Positions 10,649 through 52,378 of a stretch of DNA of 64,000 nucleotides are shown here, piece after piece; position 1 is the first letter of the stretch, and each line of letters starts with the position of its first letter. The stretch spans positions 1,287,987 to 1,351,986 of the forward strand of contig NZ_CP192292.1 of assembly GCF_050596425.1 (NCBI RefSeq). The letters run 5' to 3'. The translations under genes and the position numbers were made by a program. Origin of the DNA: Fusibacter sp. JL216-2. GTDB taxonomy: Bacteria; Bacillota; Clostridia; Peptostreptococcales; Acidaminobacteraceae. A model generated the notes under the pieces. It worked only from the letters and a program-made list of their open reading frames with translations, ran no database searches and was not told the origin of the DNA.

Positions 10649-10690
10649 TGGATCGCTTGTAAAACTATAAGTTAAGGGAAGGCAATCTTT

Positions 10691-11236
10691 CTAAATGAGA
10701 TTTTTTAAAGAAGGTTCAATATCTCTAGGGTCAACAGGCGATTCAAAGCGTTCAACCACATTGCCCTTTCTGTCTACTAGGAATTTTGTGAAGTTCCACT
10801 TGATGGCATTGCCCATCGCAAAAGTTGGAAACTTTTCATCAATCATGGCCTTGAGCATCTTATTGCTTGGGTTTGACATATCAAAGCCTTCAAATGGAGC
10901 GGCTTCCTTCAGGTATTCAAATAGGGGATCGGCCTCGGCACCATTTACATCAATCTTATCAAACGTTGGGAAATCAACCCCGAATTCTAGGGAGCAAAAA
11001 GACTGAATTTGATCGTTGTTGTCAAATTCCTGGTTCATGAACTGACCACATGGGAATCCAAGAACGAGGAAGCCTTCATCCTTATAGGATTCGTATAAAT
11101 TTTGAAGGTCCTTAAATTGCGGTGTGAATCCACACTTGCTTGCTGTGTTGACAATGAGAAGGGGTTGACCTTCATAGTCACGAAGGGAAATAGTCTTTCC
11201 ATCCATAGTTTGTACATTAAAATCGTAAATGTTCAT
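10691..11236 (-). CDS. glutathione peroxidase
   Basis: GPx signature NTASKCGFT...LGFPCGQF. Strong RBS (AGGAGAA) before the ATG. Confidence 0.9.
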   Translation of the reverse strand: MNIYDFNVQTMDGKTISLRDYEGQPLLIVNTASKCGFTPQFKDLQNLYESYKDEGFLVLGFPCGQFMNQEFDNNDQIQSFCSLEFGVDFPTFDKIDVNGAEADPLFEYLKEAAPFEGFDMSNPSNKMLKAMIDEKFPTFAMGNAIKWNFTKFLVDRKGNVVERFESPVDPRDIEPSLKNLI

Positions 11237-11252
11237 GTGTATTCTCCTAACT

Positions 11253-11340
11253 AAGCGTCTTGTAAAATATCATTCAATAATCCTCGTCATAAGATAGTTA
11301 GATATTTAAGAAATTAAAATTCCATATAAGCTATGACGGG
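11253..11340. repeat. nested-palindromic intergenic repeat, copy B (truncated, left arm plus core)
   Basis: AAGCGTCTTGTAAAATATCATTCAATAATCCTCGTCATAAG...TATTTAAGAAATTAAAATTCCATATAAGCTATGACGGG. Sits in the gpx / marR intergenic gap. Confidence 0.65.
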
Positions 11341-11341
11341 T

Positions 11342-11779
11342 CTAATCTTCATTCATGGAGCAAAGCACCTTATCAAGGTACTTCTTGAGCATAATAAGAT
11401 CCTCAATGTCGCCCTTATAATCCCCAAGCAGTTGGTCGGGCACATCTACAATTTGCTCTTTTAAAAGAAGCCCTTTTTGAGTCACTTCAACAATAACCTG
11501 CCTGTCGTCATGAGGACTTCTGTATTTATTTACATAGTCCATGGAAACCAGTTTTTTTAGAACCGGAGTCAATGTTCCCGAATCTAGGTGAAGTCTCTTT
11601 CCAAGTGATTTGAAATCAATCTTTTCTTCCTCCCAGAGCACAAGCATGGCAACGTACTGGGTATAGGTCAGATTATGCTTTGACAATAGGGGCTTATAGA
11701 GTTTTATAATTTCTCTGGACAAAGCATACAAGGGAAAGCACAGTTGATTGTCTAGTTTTAGTTTTTCAAAGTTATTCAT
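11342..11779 (-). CDS. MarR-family transcriptional regulator, OhrR-like (N-terminal redox Cys)
   Basis: Winged-helix MarR fold with a conserved N-terminal Cys (NQLCFPLYA). Start at the internal ATG behind AAGGTGG. Confidence 0.75.
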   Translation of the reverse strand: MNNFEKLKLDNQLCFPLYALSREIIKLYKPLLSKHNLTYTQYVAMLVLWEEEKIDFKSLGKRLHLDSGTLTPVLKKLVSMDYVNKYRSPHDDRQVIVEVTQKGLLLKEQIVDVPDQLLGDYKGDIEDLIMLKKYLDKVLCSMNED

Positions 11780-12059
11780 AAACCCACCTTTTGATTTTGT
11801 TAAATTTAATTGAGCTAAATCAAAATACATTTTTATTATATACCTTTCAATGAATTTGTCAAACTCATTTTACGAGATGTGTATGAATCTCTTCTGCCTA
11901 AACGTGGTCTTTATGTTTCTTAGGTGTGGAATCTGGTGTGCCTGCAATGAATAAGGCGTTCATCAAGTGGGTATTTGTAGTGGGTGTCCTTTAATAAAGG
12001 TTGACAAGTTTTAAAATAAAGCCTAATATAAAATTGACCCCCTAGGGGAGGGGTATCTT

Positions 12060-12173
12060 GAGCGGTACTAAAACTATCAAGCACCCTTGCTATACCATAT
12101 ATAGATATTTAAGAATCAAAAATTCTGTATATGGTATAGCAAGGGTACAGATCTGTAATTTTGCAAGTCGCTC
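12060..12173. repeat. nested-palindromic intergenic repeat, copy C (most complete right arm)
   Basis: CCCTTGCTATACCATATATAGATATTTAAGAATCAAAAATTCTGTATATGGTATAGCAAGGG ... ATTTTGCAAGTCGCTC (reverse complement of the copy A/D/E left terminus). Lies upstream of the CoADR gene. Confidence 0.75.
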
Positions 12174-12230
12174 AGATTAAGTGACTTAGATTAAATTTTA
12201 TAAAGATAAAAAATTATGCGAGGTGTTAAG

Positions 12231-14273
12231 ATGGAAAAAGTCCTAATTATCGGTGGTGTGGCGGCAGGCGCCACAGCAGCCGCAAAAGTAAGAAGACTTT
12301 CAGCAGATGCTGAAATTACTATTTTAGAAGCAGGGGCAGATATTTCCTTTGCCAACTGCGGCCTACCCTATTATATTGGTGGGGACATAGACAGCCGGTC
12401 AAAGCTTATACTTCAAAGTCCTGAAAGCTTTAACGACCAGTACCGCACAGCTGTTTACATCCACACGCAAGCAACTCAAATTGACAGGCAAGCTAAAGTG
12501 GTTCATACCCTTAACAAGCAAAGCGGTGAGAAGAAATCATTTGAATACACAAAACTTATTCTAGCCCAGGGGGGAAGACCCATTGCACCGCCACTTCCAG
12601 GTGCAGATCAGGATCATGTTTTTAGCCTGTGGACCCTTGATGACATGGACAAAATAGACAATTATATTTCTGATAATGCGCCAAAGACTGCCGTGGTTGT
12701 GGGTGGTGGATTCATTGGTCTTGAAATGTCGGAAGCTCTTGCCAAAAGGGGCATGAAGGTATCTGTTATTGAAATGATGCCCCACGTTATGGGGATTATG
12801 GAAGCGGAAATAGCAGGCTTTATACAAGAGGAACTTCAAGCTTATGGTGTTGATGTTTTCACGAACAGGGCTCTTAAATCAGTCGGTGCGAAAAGTGTAC
12901 AACTTAGTGATGGCACACAAGTGTCTGCTGACATGGTCCTCATGTCTGTTGGTGTTCGTCCAACCCTTAAACTGGCTCAGGAAGCAGGTCTTGAACTTGG
13001 ACCAGCTGGCGGACTGCTCGTTGACACGACGCTCAAAACGAGCGATGACAACATATATGCTGCTGGTGACATGATTGAACTTGAGCACCGTGTTTTAGGC
13101 AAGAAGGTAAGAATTCCTCTGGCTGGGCCAGCGAATCGACAAGGACGGATCGCAGCAGAAAATGCCATGGGACATAGGCATGAATACAAGGGCTCGATTG
13201 GAACATCAATTGTTAAAGTCTTTGAAGCGGTTGCGGGCATTACGGGTATTTCCTTAAAGGCGGCAAGAGCTGAGGGCATTAATGCCGATGCCATAGTTGT
13301 CCATAAGGAGAACCACACCACATACTATCCGGGCGCTCAATTGGTTTCGGTGCTTGTTGTTTATGATAAAGACACAGGCACTGTTCTAGGAGGACAGACT
13401 GCAGGGTATGCAGGTGCTGACAGGCGGCTTGATGTCCTTGCCACAGCGGTTGCCGCAAAACTTACAGTTTCTGATCTTGCAGATATGGACTTCGCATACT
13501 CTCCACCACTGGGAAATGCCAATGATGCAATAAACATGGCGGCATACACAGCAGAAAATAGGATGACAGGCTTTTCGCCAGCCTTGACTGTGAACGAACT
13601 TGATGACTTTTTAAAGACAAACAAGGCCTTTTGGATTGATGTACGAGATGTATTCTCTTATGAGAATGCCCATGTGGACAAGGCCCTCAACATCCCTCTT
13701 GAAATGCTTTCTGGCACACTGGATCAACTGCCTAAAGACCAACTTATAGTTCTTTATGACAAGACAGGGAAGAAGGGACACCAAGCGCTCAGGACCTTAA
13801 AAGGGGCAGGTTTTAATAAGGTGATTAATGTAAGTGGTGGATTTGTCAGCTTGTCAAATTACGTCCGCTCAGTAAGACCTGAAAGCTTTACACTGGATTT
13901 GCCAAAACCACAAAATAAGCAGATCGGCCAAGCCACTGAGAAAGAGGAAGGCGGGGCTCAAAAGGAAAGTGAAAACAGCCAAGGGAATGCACTGGCTAGT
14001 GAAGATGTAAATGCACCTCTGATTATAGATGTGCGTACGAAAGAAGAGTTTGACCATGGGGCTTATCCAGGCGCAATCAATATTCCCCTCGATGATTTAG
14101 AAGACAAATTATCAGAACTGGGAAGCCTTGACAGAGAGATTATTCTCTACTGTGCATCTGGGGCAAGAAGCGCTTATGCCCTTAGAATGCTGAAATTTAA
14201 CGGTTTTACCAATGCTGAAAATGGTGGTGGCATTGCAAGAATGATGGCGCGCTATAGAAATTCGGCTATGTAA
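12231..14273 (+). CDS. CoA-disulfide reductase / NAD(P)H persulfide reductase with two C-terminal rhodanese domains
   Basis: FAD GGVAAG, redox-active SFANCGLPYY, second NAD fold VVGGGFIGLE. First rhodanese domain lacks the Cys; the second has the active-site CASGARS. Confidence 0.85.
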   Translation: MEKVLIIGGVAAGATAAAKVRRLSADAEITILEAGADISFANCGLPYYIGGDIDSRSKLILQSPESFNDQYRTAVYIHTQATQIDRQAKVVHTLNKQSGEKKSFEYTKLILAQGGRPIAPPLPGADQDHVFSLWTLDDMDKIDNYISDNAPKTAVVVGGGFIGLEMSEALAKRGMKVSVIEMMPHVMGIMEAEIAGFIQEELQAYGVDVFTNRALKSVGAKSVQLSDGTQVSADMVLMSVGVRPTLKLAQEAGLELGPAGGLLVDTTLKTSDDNIYAAGDMIELEHRVLGKKVRIPLAGPANRQGRIAAENAMGHRHEYKGSIGTSIVKVFEAVAGITGISLKAARAEGINADAIVVHKENHTTYYPGAQLVSVLVVYDKDTGTVLGGQTAGYAGADRRLDVLATAVAAKLTVSDLADMDFAYSPPLGNANDAINMAAYTAENRMTGFSPALTVNELDDFLKTNKAFWIDVRDVFSYENAHVDKALNIPLEMLSGTLDQLPKDQLIVLYDKTGKKGHQALRTLKGAGFNKVINVSGGFVSLSNYVRSVRPESFTLDLPKPQNKQIGQATEKEEGGAQKESENSQGNALASEDVNAPLIIDVRTKEEFDHGAYPGAINIPLDDLEDKLSELGSLDREIILYCASGARSAYALRMLKFNGFTNAENGGGIARMMARYRNSAM

Positions 14274-14761: not shown

Positions 14762-15235
14762 AATACTCCTTGTTGATATAGATTCATTAACTGTCTAAAT
14801 TCACAATAAGATTAGATGGGCTTCTGTGCATAAGTACCTCGCTTTAATTTTAATAGCTCTAGACTAGCACAAGTTAGGTGGACTGACAACGCATGTTGGA
14901 ATAAAAATATGTTGGATCGTCTTGATTTTGCCAAACCTGCAAAGTGATTTAATATTAGTGAAGATAGCATATAAGAAATTATTAATGCAGACGATTATTT
15001 TCCCCAAAATTTCAATCTTTAGATTCACGAAATTTAATAGGACAATAGCGTATATTAGATTTTCTCTGTGTGTTAAAATGGTTTTAGTAAACAATGTGAC
15101 TTATTTTAATAATATATAGAAACCATTGTCCAGTAAAAAGATAAATAGGGATGTTATCACTCTACTTATTATAATCTGGTAAGATAAGCCACGGATACTA
15201 CAAAAACCTGAAATGCGTTAAAGGATATGATAGAT

Positions 15236-17947
15236 ATGAAAAAACTCACAGTGGGCATATTGGCGCATGTTGATGCAGGGAAGACAACCCTGTCTGAAAG
15301 CATGCTTTATTTGAGCGGCAAAATTAGAAAAATTGGTCGTGTGGACAATAAAGATGCCTATTTAGACACATATGAACTTGAAAAACAACGGGGTATAACC
15401 ATCTTTTCAAAACAAGCCGTCATGCAGTTTGATGATACGGAAATCACCTTGCTCGACACACCGGGACATGTGGATTTTTCCGCTGAAATGGAAAGGACAC
15501 TGCAGGTTTTAGACTACGCCATATTGGTGATCAGTGGAGCTGACGGTGTTCAAAATCATACGAAAACAGTATGGGAACTCCTTGAGTACTATAAGGTACC
15601 AACCTTTATATTTGTCAATAAGATGGACCAAGCCGGAACAAGCCGGGACTTTGTGATGGCGTCCATTCATAAAAATTTAAGTGACAGGTGTATTGTCTTT
15701 GATGGAGAAAGTAATACGAATGAAGGGAAGCTTTTAGATAAAGAGAGCCAGTTTAAAGAAGAAAGGGATGAAACCCTGGCCCTATGTGATGAAAGGGTCA
15801 TGGAAAGTTATATTGAAACAGGACGCGTGTCGGATGAACAAATACAGAATCTTGTTGCAAAGCGAAAGGCCTTTCCTGTCTACTTTGGATCAGCCTTAAA
15901 ACAAGAGGGCACCAAGGCCTTTGTTCAAGGGCTTATTCAGTATTCAAAAAGAAAAGACTACCCCAGTGCATTTGGTGCCAAAGTTTTTAAAATATCCCGT
16001 GACGAAGATGGCAACAGACTGACCCACTTAAAAATCACAGGTGGACAAGTCAAAGTCAAAGACACCATTGAACTTATGGAGCAGTCTGAAAAAATAAATC
16101 AGATTCGTGTGTATTCAGGCGAAAAATATCATACAGAAAGCACCCTTAAAGCAGGCGCAGTATGTGCTGTAACGGGTCTTAGCTTGACAAGGCCAGGACA
16201 GGGGCTGGGCACAGAGAAAAAGTCAACAGCTCCTCAACTAGAGCCGGTTTTATCCTATCAAGTGGTCTTGCCTGATGATGTCAGTGAAAGACAAATTCTT
16301 CCCAAGCTAAGAGAACTGGAAGAAGAAGAACCAGAACTTAGGGTGCTGTGGAATGAAGTTCACCAATCCATTCATATACAGGTTATGGGAGTAGTACAAC
16401 TGGAAATTCTTCAGTCTTTGATTGAAGAGAGGTATGGAGTGCTTGTTAGCTATGGTCATGGAGAAATAGTCTATAAGGAAACTGTCGCCAGTCGGGTGGA
16501 AGGCGTTGGTCATTTCGAACCCCTACGTCATTATGCTGAAGTCCATCTGCTTATCGAGCCTGGTGAAAGGGGCAGTGGGATGACTTACGGCACCCGTTGC
16601 AGTGAAGATATTCTTGATAAGAATTGGCAGAACCTTGTCCTGACCCACTTGAATGAGAAGACCCACACAGGGGTTTTAATAGGGGCACAGTTGACCGATG
16701 TAAAGGTAACCCTTGTATCTGGTCGTGCCCATAACAAACATACCGCTGGGGGGGACTTCAGACAGGCGACTTTTAGGGCCCTACGCCAAGGGCTTATGGA
16801 AGGTGAATGTCTCTTACTTGAGCCCTATTACAAGTTTAAACTTGTTCTTCCAGAGCAAATGGTGGGACGGGCCATGACCGATGTTGATAAGATGTATGGA
16901 ACTTGTACTTTGGAACAGACCGATGGTGAAATGGCAATCATAAGTGGAGTGGCTCCCGTTTCTAGGATGCAGAATTACCAACAAGACCTTCATGCTTATA
17001 CAAAAGGAGAAGGCAGACTTTCTATTGCAGTAAAAGGCTATGACATTTGCCATAATGCGGATGAAATTATTGAGCAGGTGGGGTATGATCCCGAGCTGGA
17101 TGTTGGCAACCCGACCGGCTCAGTCTTTTGTTCTAAGGGGACGGGCTATTACGTCCCATGGGATGAAGTTAAAAGCCATATGCATGTGGAGGCCTATTTA
17201 AAAGCAAAAAAAGGACTTGAAGATGAAAAGAATCTTGAACCAGCAGACAGGGGTTCTGACGATTTTATCAGTCTAGAAGAAATTGATTCCATAATAAACA
17301 GCACCCATTTTGCCAACCAGGGGCGAAAGAATATTTGGAAAAGAAAAGGCAGTGCTAAAGAAAGTCACTACCTTTCACTTGCAAGTCCAAAACACTCTTA
17401 TCAGAGCCGAATCAATACGGAATCAGATGAAGAGTACCTTCTTGTTGATGGTTATAATATTATTCATGCATGGCCTGAACTCGAAGAAATTTCTCGCGAA
17501 AGCATGGAAGGGGCCAGATTAAAGCTCATTGATATTTTAAGCAATTACCAGCCCATCAGAAAATGCAAAATCATGCTTGTATTTGATGCCTACCGCGTTC
17601 AGGGACGTAAAGAGTCCGTTGAAGAAGTAAACAATATACAAGTTGTTTATACAGGTGAAGCCCAAACAGCAGATCATTTTATTGAGAAGTTTGCCCATGC
17701 CAATAAAAGAAACTATAAAATCACTGTGGCCACATCAGATGGTCTTCAGCAAATCATCATCAGGGGGGCAGGGGCCAATCTTCTTTCTGCCAGGGACTTA
17801 AAGCATGCTGTGGACATAGCTGAGGAAAGACTGCACTCAGAGCATTTGAGCGGAAAAATTAAAGTAAAAGACACCTTGTCAGATGCCTTGCCAGATGAAA
17901 TAAAAGAAAAACTCCAGGCTGATATGAAAGATGAAAACAGTCAGTAA
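15236..17947 (+). CDS. TetM/TetO/EF-G-family translational GTPase fused to a C-terminal NYN (YacP/Rae1-like) ribonuclease domain
   Basis: G1 AHVDAGKTT, G3 DTPGHVDF, G4 NKMD. Roughly 640 aa are co-linear with TetM. After a basic linker comes LLVDGYNIIHAWPEL...MLVFDAY...TADHFIEK...VATSDG, closely matching B. subtilis YacP/Rae1. Confidence 0.8.
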   Translation: MKKLTVGILAHVDAGKTTLSESMLYLSGKIRKIGRVDNKDAYLDTYELEKQRGITIFSKQAVMQFDDTEITLLDTPGHVDFSAEMERTLQVLDYAILVISGADGVQNHTKTVWELLEYYKVPTFIFVNKMDQAGTSRDFVMASIHKNLSDRCIVFDGESNTNEGKLLDKESQFKEERDETLALCDERVMESYIETGRVSDEQIQNLVAKRKAFPVYFGSALKQEGTKAFVQGLIQYSKRKDYPSAFGAKVFKISRDEDGNRLTHLKITGGQVKVKDTIELMEQSEKINQIRVYSGEKYHTESTLKAGAVCAVTGLSLTRPGQGLGTEKKSTAPQLEPVLSYQVVLPDDVSERQILPKLRELEEEEPELRVLWNEVHQSIHIQVMGVVQLEILQSLIEERYGVLVSYGHGEIVYKETVASRVEGVGHFEPLRHYAEVHLLIEPGERGSGMTYGTRCSEDILDKNWQNLVLTHLNEKTHTGVLIGAQLTDVKVTLVSGRAHNKHTAGGDFRQATFRALRQGLMEGECLLLEPYYKFKLVLPEQMVGRAMTDVDKMYGTCTLEQTDGEMAIISGVAPVSRMQNYQQDLHAYTKGEGRLSIAVKGYDICHNADEIIEQVGYDPELDVGNPTGSVFCSKGTGYYVPWDEVKSHMHVEAYLKAKKGLEDEKNLEPADRGSDDFISLEEIDSIINSTHFANQGRKNIWKRKGSAKESHYLSLASPKHSYQSRINTESDEEYLLVDGYNIIHAWPELEEISRESMEGARLKLIDILSNYQPIRKCKIMLVFDAYRVQGRKESVEEVNNIQVVYTGEAQTADHFIEKFAHANKRNYKITVATSDGLQQIIIRGAGANLLSARDLKHAVDIAEERLHSEHLSGKIKVKDTLSDALPDEIKEKLQADMKDENSQ

Positions 17948-18215
17948 AATATATTGGAGTAGGATCAAAAGAGCCCTAGGGCAAAGAAATTAGACGATAT
18001 TCACAAGTTTGCTAAAGAATTAAAAGTAGATATAAAGTACCGACCAGTCCATGGATCTTCGTTAAGAAGACACCATGGACTTTTTTAATGGTTTTTATAT
18101 GCCAAAAAAAGGGTAGATTGCAATTAAGGCAAATCCTATTTAATAGCATGTTTGATAATAGGAAAAACCATAAACACCATATATAAATTTCACAGTAACT
18201 TGAAGGGGGCAGACC

Positions 18216-19091
18216 ATGAAAGGCCAAAAAACACTCATAATAGATGACAACAATGAAAACCTAAAAGTGGCAGCACGCATCTTAAAAAATGACGATTTAC
18301 AGATTATTGTTTCCAATAATGCCAAAAAAGGCATACAAATAGCGAAAGAAATCAAACCAGATCTAATTTTGTTGGATATACAAATGCCTGAAATGGATGG
18401 ATATGAGGTGTGTCGCACCCTTAAAGAAGATGAAAGTGTTATGGATATTCCTGTGATTTTTATGACTGCCAGCACCGACGAGAGGTCTATAAAAGAAGCT
18501 TATAGGTCAGGTGGCGTTGACTATATTGTCAAGCCCGTTAGAAAGTATGAACTCATTTCTAGAGTGCAAACCCATCTAAAACTATCACAAGTTATTAAGG
18601 AGCTTGAGCTGGCAGCCGTGACGGATGGTCTAACTGGGCTTTTTAACCACAACAGGATATTTGAAATTTTAGATCATGAAATAAAAAGGTCCGTTCGCTA
18701 TAAAGAGCCATTTTGCATTCTTATGGCGGATATTGATAAGTTTAAAAGTGCCAATGATACATATGGTCATCATTTTGGAGATGATGTCCTAGTCAGTGTT
18801 TCTAAATGCCTAAGAGAAACAGTTCGTGAAACTGACTATGTGGGACGGTATGGGGGAGAAGAGTTTCTCATTATCATGCCAAACACAAGCCTAAATGCTG
18901 GAAAAGAAGCAGCGGAACGTATTAGAAAAAAAGTTAGTGAAATTGACTTTGACAACGACTTCAAATTGACCATTAGCGGTGGTGTCATTGAATTTGATGA
19001 AAGTCTTTCAGCCCTTGAAATGGTTGACAAGGCTGATGAATTTTTATACCTGGCAAAAGAGAATGGAAGAAATCAGATGGTGAGTGAATAA
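18216..19091 (+). CDS. response regulator receiver - GGDEF diguanylate cyclase
   Basis: Receiver domain (DLILLDIQMPEMDG) plus catalytic GGDEF (RYGGEEFLII). Confidence 0.85.
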   Translation: MKGQKTLIIDDNNENLKVAARILKNDDLQIIVSNNAKKGIQIAKEIKPDLILLDIQMPEMDGYEVCRTLKEDESVMDIPVIFMTASTDERSIKEAYRSGGVDYIVKPVRKYELISRVQTHLKLSQVIKELELAAVTDGLTGLFNHNRIFEILDHEIKRSVRYKEPFCILMADIDKFKSANDTYGHHFGDDVLVSVSKCLRETVRETDYVGRYGGEEFLIIMPNTSLNAGKEAAERIRKKVSEIDFDNDFKLTISGGVIEFDESLSALEMVDKADEFLYLAKENGRNQMVSE

Positions 19092-22000
19092 TGGATAAAA
19101 ACGAACTGGTTTTTTATGAAAACTTAATTGAAAACGCTTCTTTTGGTTTTGCAGACCATGAATTTATTTTCGACGAGAATGGCCTTCCTATAAATTATGT
19201 CTTTAAGAGAGTCAACAAGGCTTATGAAGACATTATTGGTATACAAAGAGAAGACATCATTGGCAAGAGGGTTACAGAATGCTTTCCAGATATGGATAAG
19301 GATAATTTTGACTGGATAAATTTTTTCGCTGAGGTGGTGAAAAGCGGTCAAAAGACAGAAATCGAACAATATGCCATGAATATGGATCGTTGGTTTCGTG
19401 TGGAAGTGGATCCTTACTCGAAGACCTGCTTTTCAATAATTTTTACAGATATCACCAATGAAATGATCAAACTCCATGAAGTGGAAAAACAAGAAAAGTA
19501 TTTTCAGCAAGTTCTGCTTTCTATTCCCGACATTCTCCTATCGGTTAATGCTAAGGGGGAAATATTAAATTGCAATATTGGGCAAGACTGTAAAAGAAAA
19601 GAGCCTACATCAAATAAATCCCCTAGGCGATTTGATCAGATGTTTGACGAGAACGTATCTAAAAGGCTGACTGCCTATGTTCAAAAATCAATAGAAAAAA
19701 ATGAAAAATACATCATCGAATATGAATCACAGACCGGTGGAACACTTGAATCCTATGAGGCTCAAATCGTACCTCAGTCTTCTGAAGAAGCCATTGTTCT
19801 CATTCACAATATTGATAGAAGAAAGAGTATGGAAGTTGAAATTGAAAAAAACAAGAGAAATTTAGATCAATTCTTTAAACAGTCGACTGTAGGCATTTTT
19901 TTTATGATGCTTGACGAGCCCGTTGCGTGGAATCATGACTCTGATAAGGAAAAACTTTTAGACTATATATTCAGCCATCAGCGCATTACCAAGGTTAATC
20001 AAGCCATGTTAAATCAGTATGTTGCAAAAGAAGAGGATTTTATAGGGCTCACCCCCAATGATTTCTTTGAACATGACATAGAAGCTGGTCGGGCTCTATG
20101 GAAAGATTTTTTTGACACTGGTCAACTCCATATAGAAACCGATGAGAAGCGATTTAATGGCGAAGACATGTCTGTGCTTGGAGACTATGTATGCTTTTAT
20201 GATGACAAAAAAAGAATCACAGGGCATTTTGGTGTTCAAATCGATGTGACAGATCAGAAAAAGGCTGAAGAAAAATTAAGAGAAAGTGAAGAGCAACTCA
20301 GACTGACCCTAGAGGCCACAGGCGAGGGCATATGGGACTGGGATATAGTAAATGATAGTATAAACCATAATACCAGATGGTATGAAATATTGGGGATTGA
20401 AGAAGAAACACACGATCATTCTGTTGAATTCTTTTTAGAATGTATATATGAAGGTGATAGGGCGTCAGTACTCGAGCGGGTTAACTCATGTTTAGAGGAC
20501 GATTCTGTTTATGAAAGTGAACACAGAATGGTCAAACCGAGTGGTCAAGTTATTTGGGTTTTAGATAGAGGGCTTGTTGTATCAAGGGCGCCGGATGGCC
20601 AACCCCTTAGAATGCTGGGAAGTATTTCTGAAATCACACGTAAAAAAGTCCTTGAAGAACAAATCAAACTCACAAGGGACCTGTTTTCAGCAGGACCAGT
20701 TTTTATAGTGGTATGGACCGTTGATGACCAGCTATCCCTGACCTACATTTCAGACAACGTCAAAGAGCTTCTGGGATATGATAAATCTGAGATTATGCAT
20801 CCAAATTTCAAGTTTAGAGACATTATCCATCCAGAGGACTACGAGAACTATATGAATAGGATCAATGACTATATTGAAAATAGCCATGAGGACAACCACT
20901 TTGAACAGTCCTATAGAATTAGGTTAAAAAGCGGGGAGTACCGCTGGTTTTATGACTTCTCCATGCTCTCTATGAGTGAAAATAACAAGGTAAGTGAAAT
21001 TAGGGGCTACCTATATGACCAAAGTTATCAGAAGGATATTGAAAAGGACCTTGAAGAAAAAAGTTTCAGGCTGGACAGCATCATAAACGGAACCAATGTG
21101 GGCACATGGGAGTGGAATGTACAAACTGGCGAGACGGTTTTCAATGAAAGATGGGCAGAGATGATAGGCTACAGCCTAGATGAGTTAAGCCCCACAACCA
21201 TTGACACCTGGATGCAGTATGCCCATGTAGAAGACTTAGAAGCCAGTGGTCAAGCACTGAATAACCATTTCACCGGCAAAATCCCTTACTATGATGTGGA
21301 AGCTAGAATGAAGCACAAAAATGGAGATTGGATTTGGGTCCATGACAGGGGGAAGGTTGCCACCTGGACGGAAGATGGCAAGCCCCTTATGATGTACGGC
21401 ACCCATCAAGATATTACTGCAACCAAAGAGAATGAACGAAAAGTGAAGCGCTTTAGTGAACTGCAACAGATTATTTTAAAAGTTTCCAAAGACTTTATAA
21501 ACGCCGATATTTCTAAGTTTGATGAACTCACCCATGCAGCCCTAAAAGAGCTGGGTCAATTTGTCAGTGCTGACCGGGCCTATATATTTACTTATGATTT
21601 TAATAACAAGACAACTTCCAACACCTTTGAATGGTGCGAAGAAGGCATTTCAGAGGAAATCCAAAATTTGCAAGATGTGCCTCTGGATTTTATTCCAGAC
21701 TGGGTGGAAACCCATAAACGCAAGGAGGCCTTATATGTCTATGATGTGAGTGGGCTTACAAGGCCAGAAGATCAGGGGATTCGGGACATATTAGAACCCC
21801 AAGGAGTACAAAGCATTTATACCCTTCCTCTGTTTAAGAAGAATGATCTCATTGGCTTTATAGGCTTTGATTCAGTAAGAGAAAAGCACAGGTATGCAGA
21901 AAAAGAAAAAGCCCTTCTGACCATATTTGGCGAAATGTACGTCAATTTTAGTGAGAGAGTCAAAATCTCAGAAGAACTAAAAATAGCAGCCGAGCAGGCC

Positions 22001-23461
22001 AAGTCAGCAAGTGTGGCCAAGTCAGAGTTTCTTGCCAACATGAGCCACGAAATCCGCACGCCAATGAATGCGGTTCTTGGTTTTTCTGAAATTCTTAAGG
22101 GCTCATTAGAAGATGAAAAACTGCTCAACTATGTAGAAGGCATTCATGTAGCAGGTAAGAATCTGCTAAATTTAATTAATGATATTTTAGACTTGTCAAA
22201 AATAGAAGCAGGCCATATGACCATTTCCACTGAAGAAATTCGAGTGAAAAATGTCCTGCAGGAAATGATGGATCTCTTTAATATGAAGGCCAGAGAAAAG
22301 GGCATTGATTTGATATGTGACCAGGATGAAAAACTTTCAGCCTTTATTACAATTGACGAGGTGCGCGTAAAACAAGTCCTACTCAACCTAATTGGTAATG
22401 CTATGAAATTCACATCGGAGGGCATGGTCAAGATCACTGCGGAGGTGCTTAGACAAGGGGACGAAGATATGGACATTGCTTTTCGTGTCAAAGATACGGG
22501 CATAGGCATTCCTGAAGATCAGCAGAAGAAAATTTTTGACGCCTTCACCCAGCAAGATGGTCAAAGCACGCGTAAGTACGGTGGCACGGGCCTTGGGCTG
22601 GCTATTTCACGCAAGTTGGCTTCGATGATGGGCGGGGAAATCACACTGGAAAGCCAAGTGGGTCAAGGCTCTCAGTTCAGTCTGGTCTTAAATAACATAG
22701 CTTATAGAAAGGCCGCTGTGTCTCCTGATGAAGATCTTGTCAAAGTCAAAAAGGAAGAACAATATGTTTTTGCGCCTGCAAGGGTTTTAATTGCAGAAGA
22801 CATATACTCAAATATTGAGGTTTTGCTTGGTCACTTAAGAGAGTATGAATTTGAATTTTTTATATCAGAAAATGGCAAAGATGCCCTAGAAAAAGCCAAA
22901 ATCTACAGGCCAGACATTATATTAATGGACATGCAAATGCCTATTATGAGTGGCTATGAAGTCACCAAAAAATTAAAAGAAAATCCAGACACCAAGGACA
23001 TGACGATTGTGGCAGTGACTGCTTCCGTTATGAAGGACGATGAAATGCGCATAAAAGATATATGTGATGGCTACTTAAGAAAACCATTTATCAAGAATGA
23101 TCTCTTGTTTGAATTGTCAAGACATCTAGAGCATGATCTTGTGACAAAGCAAGATGTAAGTTCTAAAAATAATAAAATAGGCAGTCAATATGACCTTCCT
23201 GAAGCGTTGAAAGAGGCTATTGAAGAAAAATTCATGGACCGGTGGGCTTCAATAAACACACTCAAAATCGGTACAGACATTCAAGCGTTTGCCTTGGATC
23301 TTCTTGAATTCTCTAAACAGAATAAGGCTGAAGATCTTGAGAAGTATGCTCAAAAACTATACGATTATGCAGATGAGTTTGACATTGAGAAGATGGAAGT
23401 GCTCTTTGAAGATTTTTATAACATGGTTGTGGGATCAGAAGGTGAAGAAAAAGTGAATTAA
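19091..23461 (+). CDS. multi-sensor hybrid histidine kinase (multiple PAS/PAC, GAF, HisKA, HATPase, receiver, C-terminal helical domain)
   Basis: H-box SHEIRTPMNAV, G-box GTGLGLAIS, receiver DIILMDMQMP. The start overlaps the stop of the upstream RR-GGDEF gene. Confidence 0.85.
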   Translation: MDKNELVFYENLIENASFGFADHEFIFDENGLPINYVFKRVNKAYEDIIGIQREDIIGKRVTECFPDMDKDNFDWINFFAEVVKSGQKTEIEQYAMNMDRWFRVEVDPYSKTCFSIIFTDITNEMIKLHEVEKQEKYFQQVLLSIPDILLSVNAKGEILNCNIGQDCKRKEPTSNKSPRRFDQMFDENVSKRLTAYVQKSIEKNEKYIIEYESQTGGTLESYEAQIVPQSSEEAIVLIHNIDRRKSMEVEIEKNKRNLDQFFKQSTVGIFFMMLDEPVAWNHDSDKEKLLDYIFSHQRITKVNQAMLNQYVAKEEDFIGLTPNDFFEHDIEAGRALWKDFFDTGQLHIETDEKRFNGEDMSVLGDYVCFYDDKKRITGHFGVQIDVTDQKKAEEKLRESEEQLRLTLEATGEGIWDWDIVNDSINHNTRWYEILGIEEETHDHSVEFFLECIYEGDRASVLERVNSCLEDDSVYESEHRMVKPSGQVIWVLDRGLVVSRAPDGQPLRMLGSISEITRKKVLEEQIKLTRDLFSAGPVFIVVWTVDDQLSLTYISDNVKELLGYDKSEIMHPNFKFRDIIHPEDYENYMNRINDYIENSHEDNHFEQSYRIRLKSGEYRWFYDFSMLSMSENNKVSEIRGYLYDQSYQKDIEKDLEEKSFRLDSIINGTNVGTWEWNVQTGETVFNERWAEMIGYSLDELSPTTIDTWMQYAHVEDLEASGQALNNHFTGKIPYYDVEARMKHKNGDWIWVHDRGKVATWTEDGKPLMMYGTHQDITATKENERKVKRFSELQQIILKVSKDFINADISKFDELTHAALKELGQFVSADRAYIFTYDFNNKTTSNTFEWCEEGISEEIQNLQDVPLDFIPDWVETHKRKEALYVYDVSGLTRPEDQGIRDILEPQGVQSIYTLPLFKKNDLIGFIGFDSVREKHRYAEKEKALLTIFGEMYVNFSERVKISEELKIAAEQAKSASVAKSEFLANMSHEIRTPMNAVLGFSEILKGSLEDEKLLNYVEGIHVAGKNLLNLINDILDLSKIEAGHMTISTEEIRVKNVLQEMMDLFNMKAREKGIDLICDQDEKLSAFITIDEVRVKQVLLNLIGNAMKFTSEGMVKITAEVLRQGDEDMDIAFRVKDTGIGIPEDQQKKIFDAFTQQDGQSTRKYGGTGLGLAISRKLASMMGGEITLESQVGQGSQFSLVLNNIAYRKAAVSPDEDLVKVKKEEQYVFAPARVLIAEDIYSNIEVLLGHLREYEFEFFISENGKDALEKAKIYRPDIILMDMQMPIMSGYEVTKKLKENPDTKDMTIVAVTASVMKDDEMRIKDICDGYLRKPFIKNDLLFELSRHLEHDLVTKQDVSSKNNKIGSQYDLPEALKEAIEEKFMDRWASINTLKIGTDIQAFALDLLEFSKQNKAEDLEKYAQKLYDYADEFDIEKMEVLFEDFYNMVVGSEGEEKVN

Positions 23462-50081: not shown

Positions 50082-52118
50082 TTAGCCCTCAACCTGCTTA
50101 AAATGATCGAACATCATGGAATAATGGGCCCGCCCCTGGGACTTAGACCGGAGGTCCGTTGCATACCCAAAGAGCCTTGAAAGGGGCACTTGAGCTTTTA
50201 TAAGCTGTCCTCCAGCAACCAGTTCCATACCTTCTAAGACACCGCCTCTTGCATTAATGTCGCTCACCACATCACCTACATAATCCTCTGGAGCGTTAAC
50301 TTCCACTTTGAAGATAGGTTCAAGAAGTATGGATGCCCCCTTTTCCAGGGCTTCTTTTATGGCCATAGAGGCCGCGGTGAGAAAAGCCACTTCCGTGGAA
50401 TCCTCATCGTCAAATGCGCCGTCATAAAGATCGACATTGACATCCACAACTTCATATCCGCCAATGATACCACTGTCAAGAGCTTGTTTAAAACCTGCCA
50501 TGGCAGCGTCAATAAAATGTTTTGGAAGGGTATTCTTTTTTATGGAAGTTGTGAAAGTATGACCAGCGCCTCGTTCATTTGGGCTGACCCTGACCTTAAC
50601 ACGGGCGAACATATCCAGCCCCATGTTTTCTTTGGAAACTCTGCTTTCTATATCAACGGTTTTAGAAATGGTCTCCTTATAAGACACTTGTGGCTTGCCA
50701 ACGTTGGCTTCCACGTGGTGTTCCTTAATCATCCTATCCAGTATGACTTCAAGATGGAGTTCCCCCATGCCTGAAATAATGGTTTGTCCCGTATCGGGAT
50801 GAATGTAGGTCTTGAAAGTTGGATCTTCCTCAGCCAGTTTGCTTAGAGCATCAGTGAGCTTGACCTCATCACCGGGGCTTTTAGGTTCGACGGCAACGGA
50901 TATAACCGGGATGGGAAATTCCATTGATTCCAAAATGATCTGTGCATTTTGATCACTCAGGGTATCCCCTGTGGTGGTTTGCTTTAATCCAATAACAGCC
51001 GCGATGTCGCCTGCATGGATGGCTTCAATCTCCTTGCGTTTATCGGCATGCATTTGAAGGATTCGGCTGACACGTTCCTTTTTTCCCTTGGTGGCATTAT
51101 ATACACTTCCACCTGTTTTGAGTGAGCCTGAATATACCCGCAAATATGTTAACCGCCCTACATAGGGGTCAGACATAATCTTAAAAACAAGGGCAGAAAA
51201 TGGTTCGTCATCATCAGCATGTCTCTTGTCATCTTGACCGGAAGGCTGGTGTCCTTGTATGGGTGGCACGTCAAGAGGCGAAGGTAAAAAGTCTACAACG
51301 CTATCAAGTAAAGCCTGAACCCCCTTATTCCTATATGCCGCACCACACAGAACAGGCACAATAGCACCTGAAATCGTGGCTTTTCTAAGAACGGTAATAA
51401 GAGTGTCTTTTTTTATGTTTTCGCCTTCAAGATACTGCATCATAAGGGCATCGTCATATTCGGAAAGTGTTTCAACAAGGTGAATACGCCATTTTCTGGC
51501 TTGGTCTTCAAGGGACTGTGGAATGGCTGTCAGTTTAACTTTCTCACCAGCCTTGCCCTCATTGAAGATGGCTTTCATATCAAGAAGGGAAATCACCCCT
51601 TCAAAATCGTTTTCGGCACCTATAGGAATTTGAATGGGCACAGGGTTGGCGCCCAGTTTGTCTTCGATCATGTCAACAGACCTGTGAAAATCTGCCCCGA
51701 TAATGTCCATTTTATTGACAAAAACAATACGGGGGACATGGTAATGGTCGGCCTGGCGCCAAACAGCCTCCGTTTGGGGTTCAACCCCGCCCTTGGCATC
51801 AAGAAGAACCACAGCACCATCAAGAATACGAAGGGACCGCTCAACTTCCACTGTGAAATCCACATGTCCTGGTGTATCAATAATGTTGATTCGATTGTCC
51901 TTCCAGTGGCAGGTGGTTGCTGCAGAGGTAATGGTGATCCCTCTGGCTTGTTCCTGTTCCATCCAGTCCATCACAGTGGATCCTTCGTGGACATTCCCAA
52001 TTTTATGGGTGAGGCCAGTATAGAATAAAATGCGCTCAGTTGTCGTGGTTTTTCCTGCATCGATATGAGCCATGATGCCAATGTTTCTGGTTTTATCAAG
52101 TGGGTGTGTTCTGCTCAT
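50082..52118 (-). CDS. elongation factor G paralog (stand-alone, not in an rpsL-rpsG-fusA-tuf context)
   Basis: Canonical EF-G G domain ([21 protein letters not shown]) and domains II-V. Start at ATG behind AAGGAGA. Confidence 0.85.
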
Positions 52119-52378
52119 ATTTTGTCTCCTTCTAGTCATATTTTTAATATTTTGGTTTTCGGACTTTCACCGTATCATTGTCTCTTTTACCCAGTTTTGG
52201 ATACACTTATCGTAGGTGCGAAGATTTTGACCAATTTGTAAGAGCTCTAGGGCCTGAGTGGGGTCTCAAAAAGGTCATCAGATGGTATGATAGAGGAGGC
52301 GATAAGAAATGTAAGCCAATAAGTTTTCAGAGCATTATAAAGGCACATGGTCTGGTTTTAAGAAGTGGGTGAGGGTTT

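Follow-up and report, generated by a model that had tools for sequence, protein, structure and literature searches.

A gene of Fusibacter joining an EF-G-like GTPase to a Rae1/YacP-type nuclease domain belongs to a widespread family of Clostridia

The window analysed here is a 64,000-nt stretch of Fusibacter sp. JL216-2 DNA (NZ_CP192292.1), and all coordinates are positions in it unless another record is named. Its plus strand carries a gene for a 903-aa protein in which a translational GTPase resembling elongation factor G (EF-G) and the tetracycline ribosomal protection proteins TetM and TetO is fused to a Rae1/YacP-type NYN endoribonuclease domain. This protein is a further member of a documented, widespread and functionally uncharacterised family. 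TetM-like/YacP fusions in Clostridia were described by Atkinson 2015 (BMC Genomics, PMC4342817) and TetM-like/NYN_YacP fusions in Clostridia by Matelska 2017 (NAR, PMC5499597). The architecture is identical, with GTP_EFTU, EF-G domains II–V and PF05991, and the window protein is no different in kind. The locus has the following features.

15220..15225, +, AAAGGA, Shine-Dalgarno-like, 10 nt upstream of ATG 15236 (direct sequence reading)
15236..17947, +, complete coding sequence of the GTPase-NYN fusion, 903 aa, stop codon included (single reading frame; 99%-identical protein elsewhere)
15236..15955, +, G domain, aa 1-240, with a Tet-sized G' insert (Pfam GTP_EFTU, E 1.9e-51)
15968..16459, +, domains II and III, aa 245-408 (Pfam EF-G_D2 and EFG_III; predicted structure with confidence above 90)
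16463..16807, +, domain IV, aa 410-524 (Pfam EFG_IV, E 3.2e-18)
16502..16546, +, domain IV loop I, G423-V-G-H-F-E-P-L-R-H-Y-A-E-V-H437 (87-sequence alignment)
16721..16762, +, domain IV loop III, G496-R-A-H-N-K-H-T-A-G-G-D-F-R509 (alignments to the family, TetM and EF-G)
16814..17047, +, domain V, aa 527-604 (Pfam EFG_C, E 4.8e-18)
17048..17215, +, family-specific folded C-terminal extension, aa 605-660 (predicted structure and conservation)
17216..17428, +, variable disordered tether rich in E, K, A, R and S, aa 661-731 (predicted structure and alignment)
17429..17851, +, Rae1/YacP-type NYN endoribonuclease domain, aa 732-872 (PF05991 and alignment to 5MQ8/5MQ9)
17852..17944, +, poorly conserved helical C-terminal tail, aa 873-903 (conservation and predicted structure)
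18047..18086, +, intrinsic-terminator-like hairpin (GTCCATGG...CCATGGAC), GC-rich, then TTTTTT (sequence reading)

The gene is one open reading frame (ORF) on the plus strand, 15227/15236..17947, without an internal stop. ATG 15236 is the likelier start than ATG 15227, because AAAGGA lies 10 nt upstream of it and both the homologs and TetM/TetO begin at the equivalent Met; the alternative ATG is only 1 nt from AAAGGA and too close. The fusion gene appears monocistronic, since the hairpin and its TTTTTT follow the stop, the next gene downstream begins only at 18216 and the upstream gene is divergent. A simple terminator scanner skips this hairpin because its loop is longer than 8 nt. The 5′ leader folds with a z of -1.7 and holds no terminator-like element, giving no evidence of an attenuator, and neither Rfam (gathering threshold) nor a tRNA scan returned a match anywhere in the window.

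The GTPase body is complete. Pfam places GTP_EFTU at aa 4-236, EF-G_D2 at aa 248-322, EFG_III at aa 336-406, EFG_IV at aa 410-522 and EFG_C at aa 527-607. The G motifs read AHVDAGKT (G1), T55 (G2), DTPGH78 (G3), NKMD (G4) and SAL (G5). Conservation was read from an alignment of 87 sequences, the window protein and 86 full-length representatives of 50%-identity clusters, and at least 95% of them have the same residue as the window protein at the core G1–G5 positions, including the catalytic His78 after DxxG. D13, G15, K16, T55, D74-G77, N128, K129 and D131 are invariant in a separate alignment of 94 sequences. With the G1–G5 motifs so conserved, the GTPase of the family should be active.

Unexpectedly, the most conserved region of the family is domain IV, with a mean conservation of 0.60 over the 87 sequences. 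Its loop I follows the consensus G-x-G-H-F/Y-E-P-L-R/K-H-Y-A-E, in which G425, H426, E428, P429, L430, H432 and Y433 are invariant in 87/87. Loop III follows R/K-A-H-x-K-H-T-E-G-G-D-F-R, with H502 and D507 kept in 87/87, K501 in 83/87 and H499 in 78/87. The loop I counterpart of GVGHFEPLRHYAEV in the window protein is HIEVPPNPFWAS in TetM/TetO and GGRGQYGH in EF-G, and that of loop III is GLYYSPVST in TetM/TetO and GSYHEVDSS in EF-G. On these alignments, the domain IV loop motifs are specific to the fusion family.

In the nuclease part, NYN_YacP (PF05991) matches aa 735-894 with an E of 2.9e-51 and 174.2 bits against a cutoff of 24.6, over 162 of the 166 profile positions, and this domain can be aligned with 5MQ8/5MQ9, the crystal structures of B. 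subtilis YacP/Rae1 (E 5.5e-23). The residues D738, N741, D784, D813 and D835, invariant in 87/87, correspond by alignment to Rae1 D7, N10, D53, D81 and D104. The NYN_YacP active site has four Asp (PMC5499597), and all four are present. The Rae1 D7N/D81N mutant is catalytically dead (PMC10351889). As the active-site residues are invariant and their mutation kills the activity of Rae1, the nuclease of the family should also be active.

Between the two catalytic modules, the first-pass annotation of this DNA, made from the letters alone, had placed a basic linker of about 80 aa. Only its second part is a tether. The first part, aa 605-660, is conserved and confidently folded, whereas aa 661-731 is variable, of mixed charge and disordered. 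The extension is predicted to consist of a helix at 608-615, a beta-hairpin at 629-640 and a helix at 645-648, with a predicted local distance difference test (pLDDT) score of about 93-97 through aa 650 that drops to about 77 over 651-660. Its conserved residues are C605, Y617, D622, S629, F631, C632, G635, W642 and H650, and no relative of it was found in PDB (E<=10) or Pfam. Across the tether, pLDDT is below 50 except at one semi-conserved helix at about 680-691, and the span corresponding to aa 655-735 varies from 61 to 189 aa in the family.

The extension also contains a set of Cys and His residues (C605, H606, C632 and H650) that may bind a metal or form a structural cluster; the set is not family-wide. 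C605 is kept in 76/87, H606 in 55/87, C632 in 79/87 and H650 in 82/87. With conservation this partial, we do not claim a metal site.

These boundaries come from an AlphaFold2 model built on a diverse 94-sequence alignment, with a mean pLDDT of 90.1 and a predicted template modelling score of 0.74. An earlier run on a shallow alignment (31 sequences, at least 60% identity) was discarded, with a pLDDT of 63 and domain IV below 50. The model shows a complete EF-G-like body, then the folded extension, the disordered tether and the NYN domain. Its body matches ribosome-bound EF-G in Foldseek (E 9e-54). The first-pass annotation had read a single fusion gene with all G motifs intact, an N-terminal part co-linear with TetM/TetO and a C-terminal 170 aa or so of the YacP/NYN family with its acidic residues kept, and on each of these points it holds.

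The fusion is widespread within one bacterial group. A search of 5.8 billion proteins gave at least 120 full-length homologs of the same Pfam architecture, 877-906 aa long and 58-99% identical, including proteins of Acetivibrio thermocellus, Ruminiclostridium cellulolyticum, Desulfosporosinus, Desulfotomaculum, Fusibacter, Anaerovorax, Sinanaerobacter, Lachnoclostridium and Cellulosilyticum. The fusion-specific aa 606-903, used as the query of an exhaustive phmmer search of 1.84 billion cluster representatives, gave 335 matches at E<=1e-30. The best 150 of these are nearly all proteins of 850-1160 aa or fragments thereof, and 86 are full-length, so that the family comprises at least 86 full-length clusters at 50% identity.

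In a scan of one genome per GTDB species, the best 80 of at least 600 matches were analysed. The fusion is present in all 80 loci, and an ORF of at least 820 aa is intact in 74 of them; at least two of the other six are interrupted by a contig end. The genera among these 80 include Roseburia, Blautia, Dorea, Mediterraneibacter, Enterocloster and Hungatella, and the fusion also occurs there in Eubacterium, Desulfitobacterium, Desulfosporosinus, A. thermocellus, Clostridium punense, Oscillospiraceae and Epulonipiscium. The nearest of the 80 is a Peptostreptococcaceae metagenome-assembled genome, 75% identical in the NYN domain. The hosts seen are mostly of spore-forming lineages. This large family is restricted to Clostridia-type Firmicutes, and its distribution looks chromosomal and vertical.

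Stand-alone yacP also exists in Clostridia, in the canonical gltX-cysS-mrnC-rlmB-yacP-sigH cluster as seen in C. difficile, and a search with the C. difficile stand-alone Rae1 gave best 120 matches that are all from Peptostreptococcaceae. The NYN domain of the fusion is about 42% identical to B. subtilis Rae1 over 135 aa and 39% identical to C. difficile Rae1, and 38 of the 135 positions are invariant and common to the fusion NYN and B. subtilis Rae1. This about equal distance from the two stand-alone proteins suggests that the fusion is old rather than recent. The core gltX-cysS-mrnC-thyX-rlmB-yacP-sigH-tuf-rpmG-secE-nusG-rplK-rplA cluster also occurs in NZ_CP149721.1 and about 11 further C. 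difficile records like it, 96-117 kb long and deposited as plasmids, several of them from single-cell data; these are probably mislabelled chromosomal fragments.

The fusion gene itself lies elsewhere. Its neighbours in the window are an ABC/ECF transporter, a glutathione peroxidase, MarR, a CoA-disulfide-reductase/rhodanese protein, GNAT, a response regulator with GGDEF, a hybrid histidine kinase and an ankyrin protein. The GNAT, the CoA-disulfide-reductase-like protein and the response-regulator/kinase pair do not correspond to the canonical yacP cluster, and no mobile-element or Tn916-like context surrounds the gene in the window. The earlier statement that the locus lacks both a Tn916-like context and a recognisable leader attenuator is thus borne out by the non-mobile neighbours and the leader free of terminator-like elements. 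Across the family, fusion genes are usually chromosomal and monocistronic, and only two 'plasmid' records carry the fusion, both of them very large.

Clustering of the neighbours over the 80 loci found no conserved partner gene. The sole recurrent neighbour cluster (26/80) was rejected as a specific partner, because it pools histidine kinases, response regulators and EAL proteins through domains that they share. Directly downstream of the fusion in the window (18216-23461, +) are a response-regulator-GGDEF gene and then a gene for a 1456-aa multi-PAS hybrid histidine kinase, and at the locus of a 73%-identical homolog (10919-13645 there) a PAS hybrid kinase is directly downstream too. The kinase and response-regulator neighbours, found in 26/80 loci at varying positions, look like background abundance rather than linkage. 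On an R. cellulolyticum-like contig, a gene for the tRNA-dihydrouridine synthase Dus (10669-11604 there) starts 26 nt past the fusion stop, and the two could be co-transcribed in that lineage; the arrangement was not seen in the remaining loci examined.

Two records named 'Bacteriophage sp.' match the fusion, MT835514.1 ('UNVERIFIED: Bacteriophage sp.') and MT835563.1. The former carries AddAB, CspB protease, FeoB, RsmH, GltX and glycerol kinase, and its fusion gene (15204-17813 there, 869 aa) lies between an rsmH-like 16S methyltransferase gene and gltX. It is plainly a bacterial chromosome fragment, and we rejected phage carriage.

The resemblance to the Tet proteins needs care. Residues 1-603/605 align in one stretch to TetO 1-611 (E 7e-81) and TetM 1-613 (E 2.5e-76), so about 605 residues are co-linear at an identity of about 35%, judged by eye from the HMMER alignment. 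These proteins share with the fusion the EF-G-like five-domain GTPase and the short G' insert. Among NCBIfam profiles, tet_protect NF012153 scores best, with 455 bits where the curated cutoff is 775, and all the specific Tet profiles are missed widely (NF033148, 324 against 1100 bits; NF012155, 266 against 1420 bits). As a control, the EF-G encoded at 50082-52139 (-) of the same window scores 402 bits on NF012153. Hence, the label 'Tet-like' mainly expresses co-linearity and the short G' insert, and the earlier view of the GTPase half as being of the ribosomal-protection type is not supported.

The element that displaces the drug is also different. In TetM, loop III is the element that matters most for function, and its Pro509 lies against C1054 in the tetracycline site. 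TetM loop III (L505-Y-Y-S-P509-V-S) aligns to R497-A-H-N-K501-H-T of the window protein, with S508-P509-V510-S511 against N500-K501-H502-T503 and K501 at the Pro509 position; the Y-S-P-V-S of TetM/TetO is thus replaced by R-A-H-x-K-H-T. TetM function requires a short C-terminal extension helix, in place of which the fusion has a 55-aa module, the tether and the nuclease.

Relative to EF-G, the overall fold is shared and H499 aligns with the conserved EF-G loop III His, whereas the fusion has a shorter G' insert, lacks the loop I GGRGQYGH and bears the additional C-terminal nuclease. On the EF-G equivalog TIGR00484, it scores 290 bits against a cutoff of 659.4. The control at 50082-52139 (-) is a 685-aa EF-G paralog of 988 bits, above the EF-G equivalog cutoff. 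This paralog also lacks the loop I GGRGQYGH, has GAFDDEDS in loop III against GSYHEVDS, the His being missing, and stops right after domain V without the C-terminal helix. GC skew is negative over its gene and nowhere else in the window. The paralog may be a second, specialised EF-G and not the main translocase.

Stand-alone Rae1 is a translation-dependent mRNA endonuclease of stalled or collided ribosomes; acting on collided ones, it is now proposed to make trans-translation substrates, in a pathway named CART. The first-pass annotation had taken A-site cleavage as the activity of Rae1. That model was withdrawn by its authors in 2025-26, and the cut is now placed about 12 nt upstream of ribosomes that have stalled or collided. 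Rae1 and the fusion are alike in the NYN_YacP fold and the four active-site Asp, and the fusion probably shares translation-coupled RNA cleavage with Rae1. They differ in that Rae1 is a single domain of about 170 aa binding ribosomes transiently on its own, whereas the fusion NYN is the C-terminal part of a 903-aa GTPase, and the rae1 gene sits in its canonical cluster, whereas the fusion is at an unrelated, non-conserved locus.

From these features, the model that we favour, and to which we give about an even chance, is that the protein works as a quality-control factor of Clostridia, its GTPase bringing an mRNA endonuclease of the Rae1 type to stalled ribosomes in a GTP-controlled way. The gene product would be a chromosomal housekeeping or stress factor. 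Its GTP-hydrolysing EF-G/Tet-like body would dock on the ribosomal factor site and, as domain IV of EF-G and Tet proteins reaches the A site, the family-specific domain IV tip would enter and probe the decoding region there. The GTPase would pick out one state of the ribosome, the most plausible being a stall that leaves both the factor site and the A site accessible, and GTP hydrolysis would restrict the residence time on the ribosome. The Rae1-type NYN nuclease on its flexible tether would then cut mRNA on the bound or a neighbouring ribosome. The truncated mRNA would feed trans-translation and mRNA decay, as a GTP-gated variant of the Rae1 CART pathway.

The cut may fall where mRNA enters the bound ribosome; in a disome this is the tail of the leading ribosome, and the position would agree with the -12 position of Rae1. 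With a tether this long, tether length does not dictate where the cut falls. In favour of this delivery model, both catalytic modules are under purifying selection across the 87 members. The strong conservation of domain IV, the EF-G-like body of the predicted structure and the activity of stand-alone Rae1 also speak for it. Moreover, a self-contained core translation or quality-control factor fits a family that is large, chromosomal and usually monocistronic, with no conserved partner and no PADLOC match. In this model, we infer the ribosome binding, the ribosome state recognised, mRNA as the substrate, the cut position and the link to transfer-messenger RNA.

Several points weigh against it. 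Current data put the Rae1 cut on the side of the stalled ribosome where mRNA exits, or its tail, far from the factor site of that same ribosome, so the geometry works only if the tether spans the gap or the GTPase sits on a neighbouring, collided ribosome. rRNA or tRNA could just as well be the substrate. Rae1 itself has no ribosome-bound structure, because it binds transiently. Finally, a literature search found no functional study of any member of the fusion family. The earlier remark that no characterised example is known therefore stands as to function and fails as to the fusion itself, which had been described in 2015 and 2017.

More tentatively, the fusions may act as bacterial 'no-go decay' enzymes that are self-contained and GTP-gated, in which the domain IV tip reads the A site and the GTPase licenses the nuclease. 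The tip rich in His, Glu, Tyr and Lys (GHFEPLRHYAE and KH) would recognise an A site that is vacant or aberrant. The ribosome-triggered activation of the GTPase would then license the tethered Rae1-type nuclease to cut mRNA. Dom34-Hbs1 is a GTPase-gated factor probing an empty A site. SmrB of E. coli and Cue2 of yeast are nucleases recruited to stalled or collided ribosomes to begin rescue, a likeness by analogy only. They have the SMR fold, which is unrelated to the NYN fold here, and none of them unites a GTPase and a nuclease in one polypeptide.

Other explanations can be set against the delivery model. That an assembly or sequencing artefact has fused two adjacent genes deserves next to no credence, and we regard a frameshift or assembly artefact as ruled out; an independent assembly (Logan SRR28093312) encodes a 903-aa protein 99% identical to the window fusion, the ORF is intact there as in the window and in 74/80 of the species-level loci, and at least 86 full-length cluster representatives are known. 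A genuine tetracycline ribosomal protection protein with an acquired accessory nuclease, displacing the drug like TetM and TetO, is very unlikely. TetO and TetM are indeed its best PDB sequence matches and tet_protect its best NCBIfam profile, many database records of the family bear TetM/TetW/TetO/TetS names, and Atkinson 2015 (PMC4342817) raised resistance as a possible role. Yet the protein falls below all the NCBIfam Tet cutoffs and scores little above the EF-G of its own window, the Pro509 loop is replaced, the TetM C-terminal helix has no counterpart, and the family looks chromosomal, away from mobile elements. Thus, the fusion is probably not a tetracycline-resistance gene, as the first-pass annotation had said in declining to call it a classical tet determinant.

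A ribosome-inactivating or turnover nuclease is a weightier alternative, though still an unlikely one. Here, the GTPase would sit at the factor site and NYN would cleave either rRNA, for instance close to the decoding centre or sarcin-ricin loop, or ribosome-bound tRNA, for ribosome shutdown or recycling in stress, sporulation or starvation. NYN_YacP was first linked by gene neighbourhood to the rRNA/tRNA processing genes mrnC and rlmB (PMC5499597), a factor-site anchor is nearer to rRNA elements than to the mRNA exit site, and most hosts seen are from spore-forming lineages. Against this, Rae1, the sole characterised NYN_YacP enzyme, cuts mRNA and not rRNA, and the fusion NYN shares with it the 38 invariant positions; a constitutive rRNA nuclease without an inhibitor or immunity gene nearby would also be risky for the cell. 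The joining of a nuclease to a sensor-like NTPase likewise brings to mind an anti-phage or toxin-like abortive-infection effector that halts translation by RNA cleavage once triggered. We consider this very unlikely too, as a PADLOC defence-system search gave no match for the fusion, no variable defence-island context or adjoining immunity gene was seen, each locus examined has a single NYN match only, and the apparent phage records with the fusion are bacterial chromosome fragments (MT835514.1 inspected).

Many family members, including those with JGI names, are labelled 'TetM/TetW/TetO/TetS family tetracycline resistance ribosomal protection protein' or 'ribosomal protection tetracycline resistance protein'. 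These names are likely over-annotations of resistance, because the window protein is far below the Tet cutoffs and the family is without the drug-displacing loop. Resistome surveys that use such names or loose homology may over-count tet genes.

Compared with the reports of 2015 and 2017, the family extends far beyond 'ten species'. Also new are the invariant, family-specific motifs at the domain IV tip, the conserved folded extension before the tether and the absence of the Tet loop III. Gut Lachnospiraceae and industrial cellulolytic Clostridia are rich in members of the family. Rae1 is newly central to collision-induced ribosome rescue in Gram-positives, and a natural GTPase-Rae1 fusion could show where the nuclease acts. 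If the 'no-go decay' proposal is true, trapping with GDPNP or a His78 mutant would give the first structural handle on a Rae1-type nuclease at the ribosome. Clostridia, including the major gut Lachnospiraceae, would then have a rescue route distinct from stand-alone Rae1, SmrB and MutS2.

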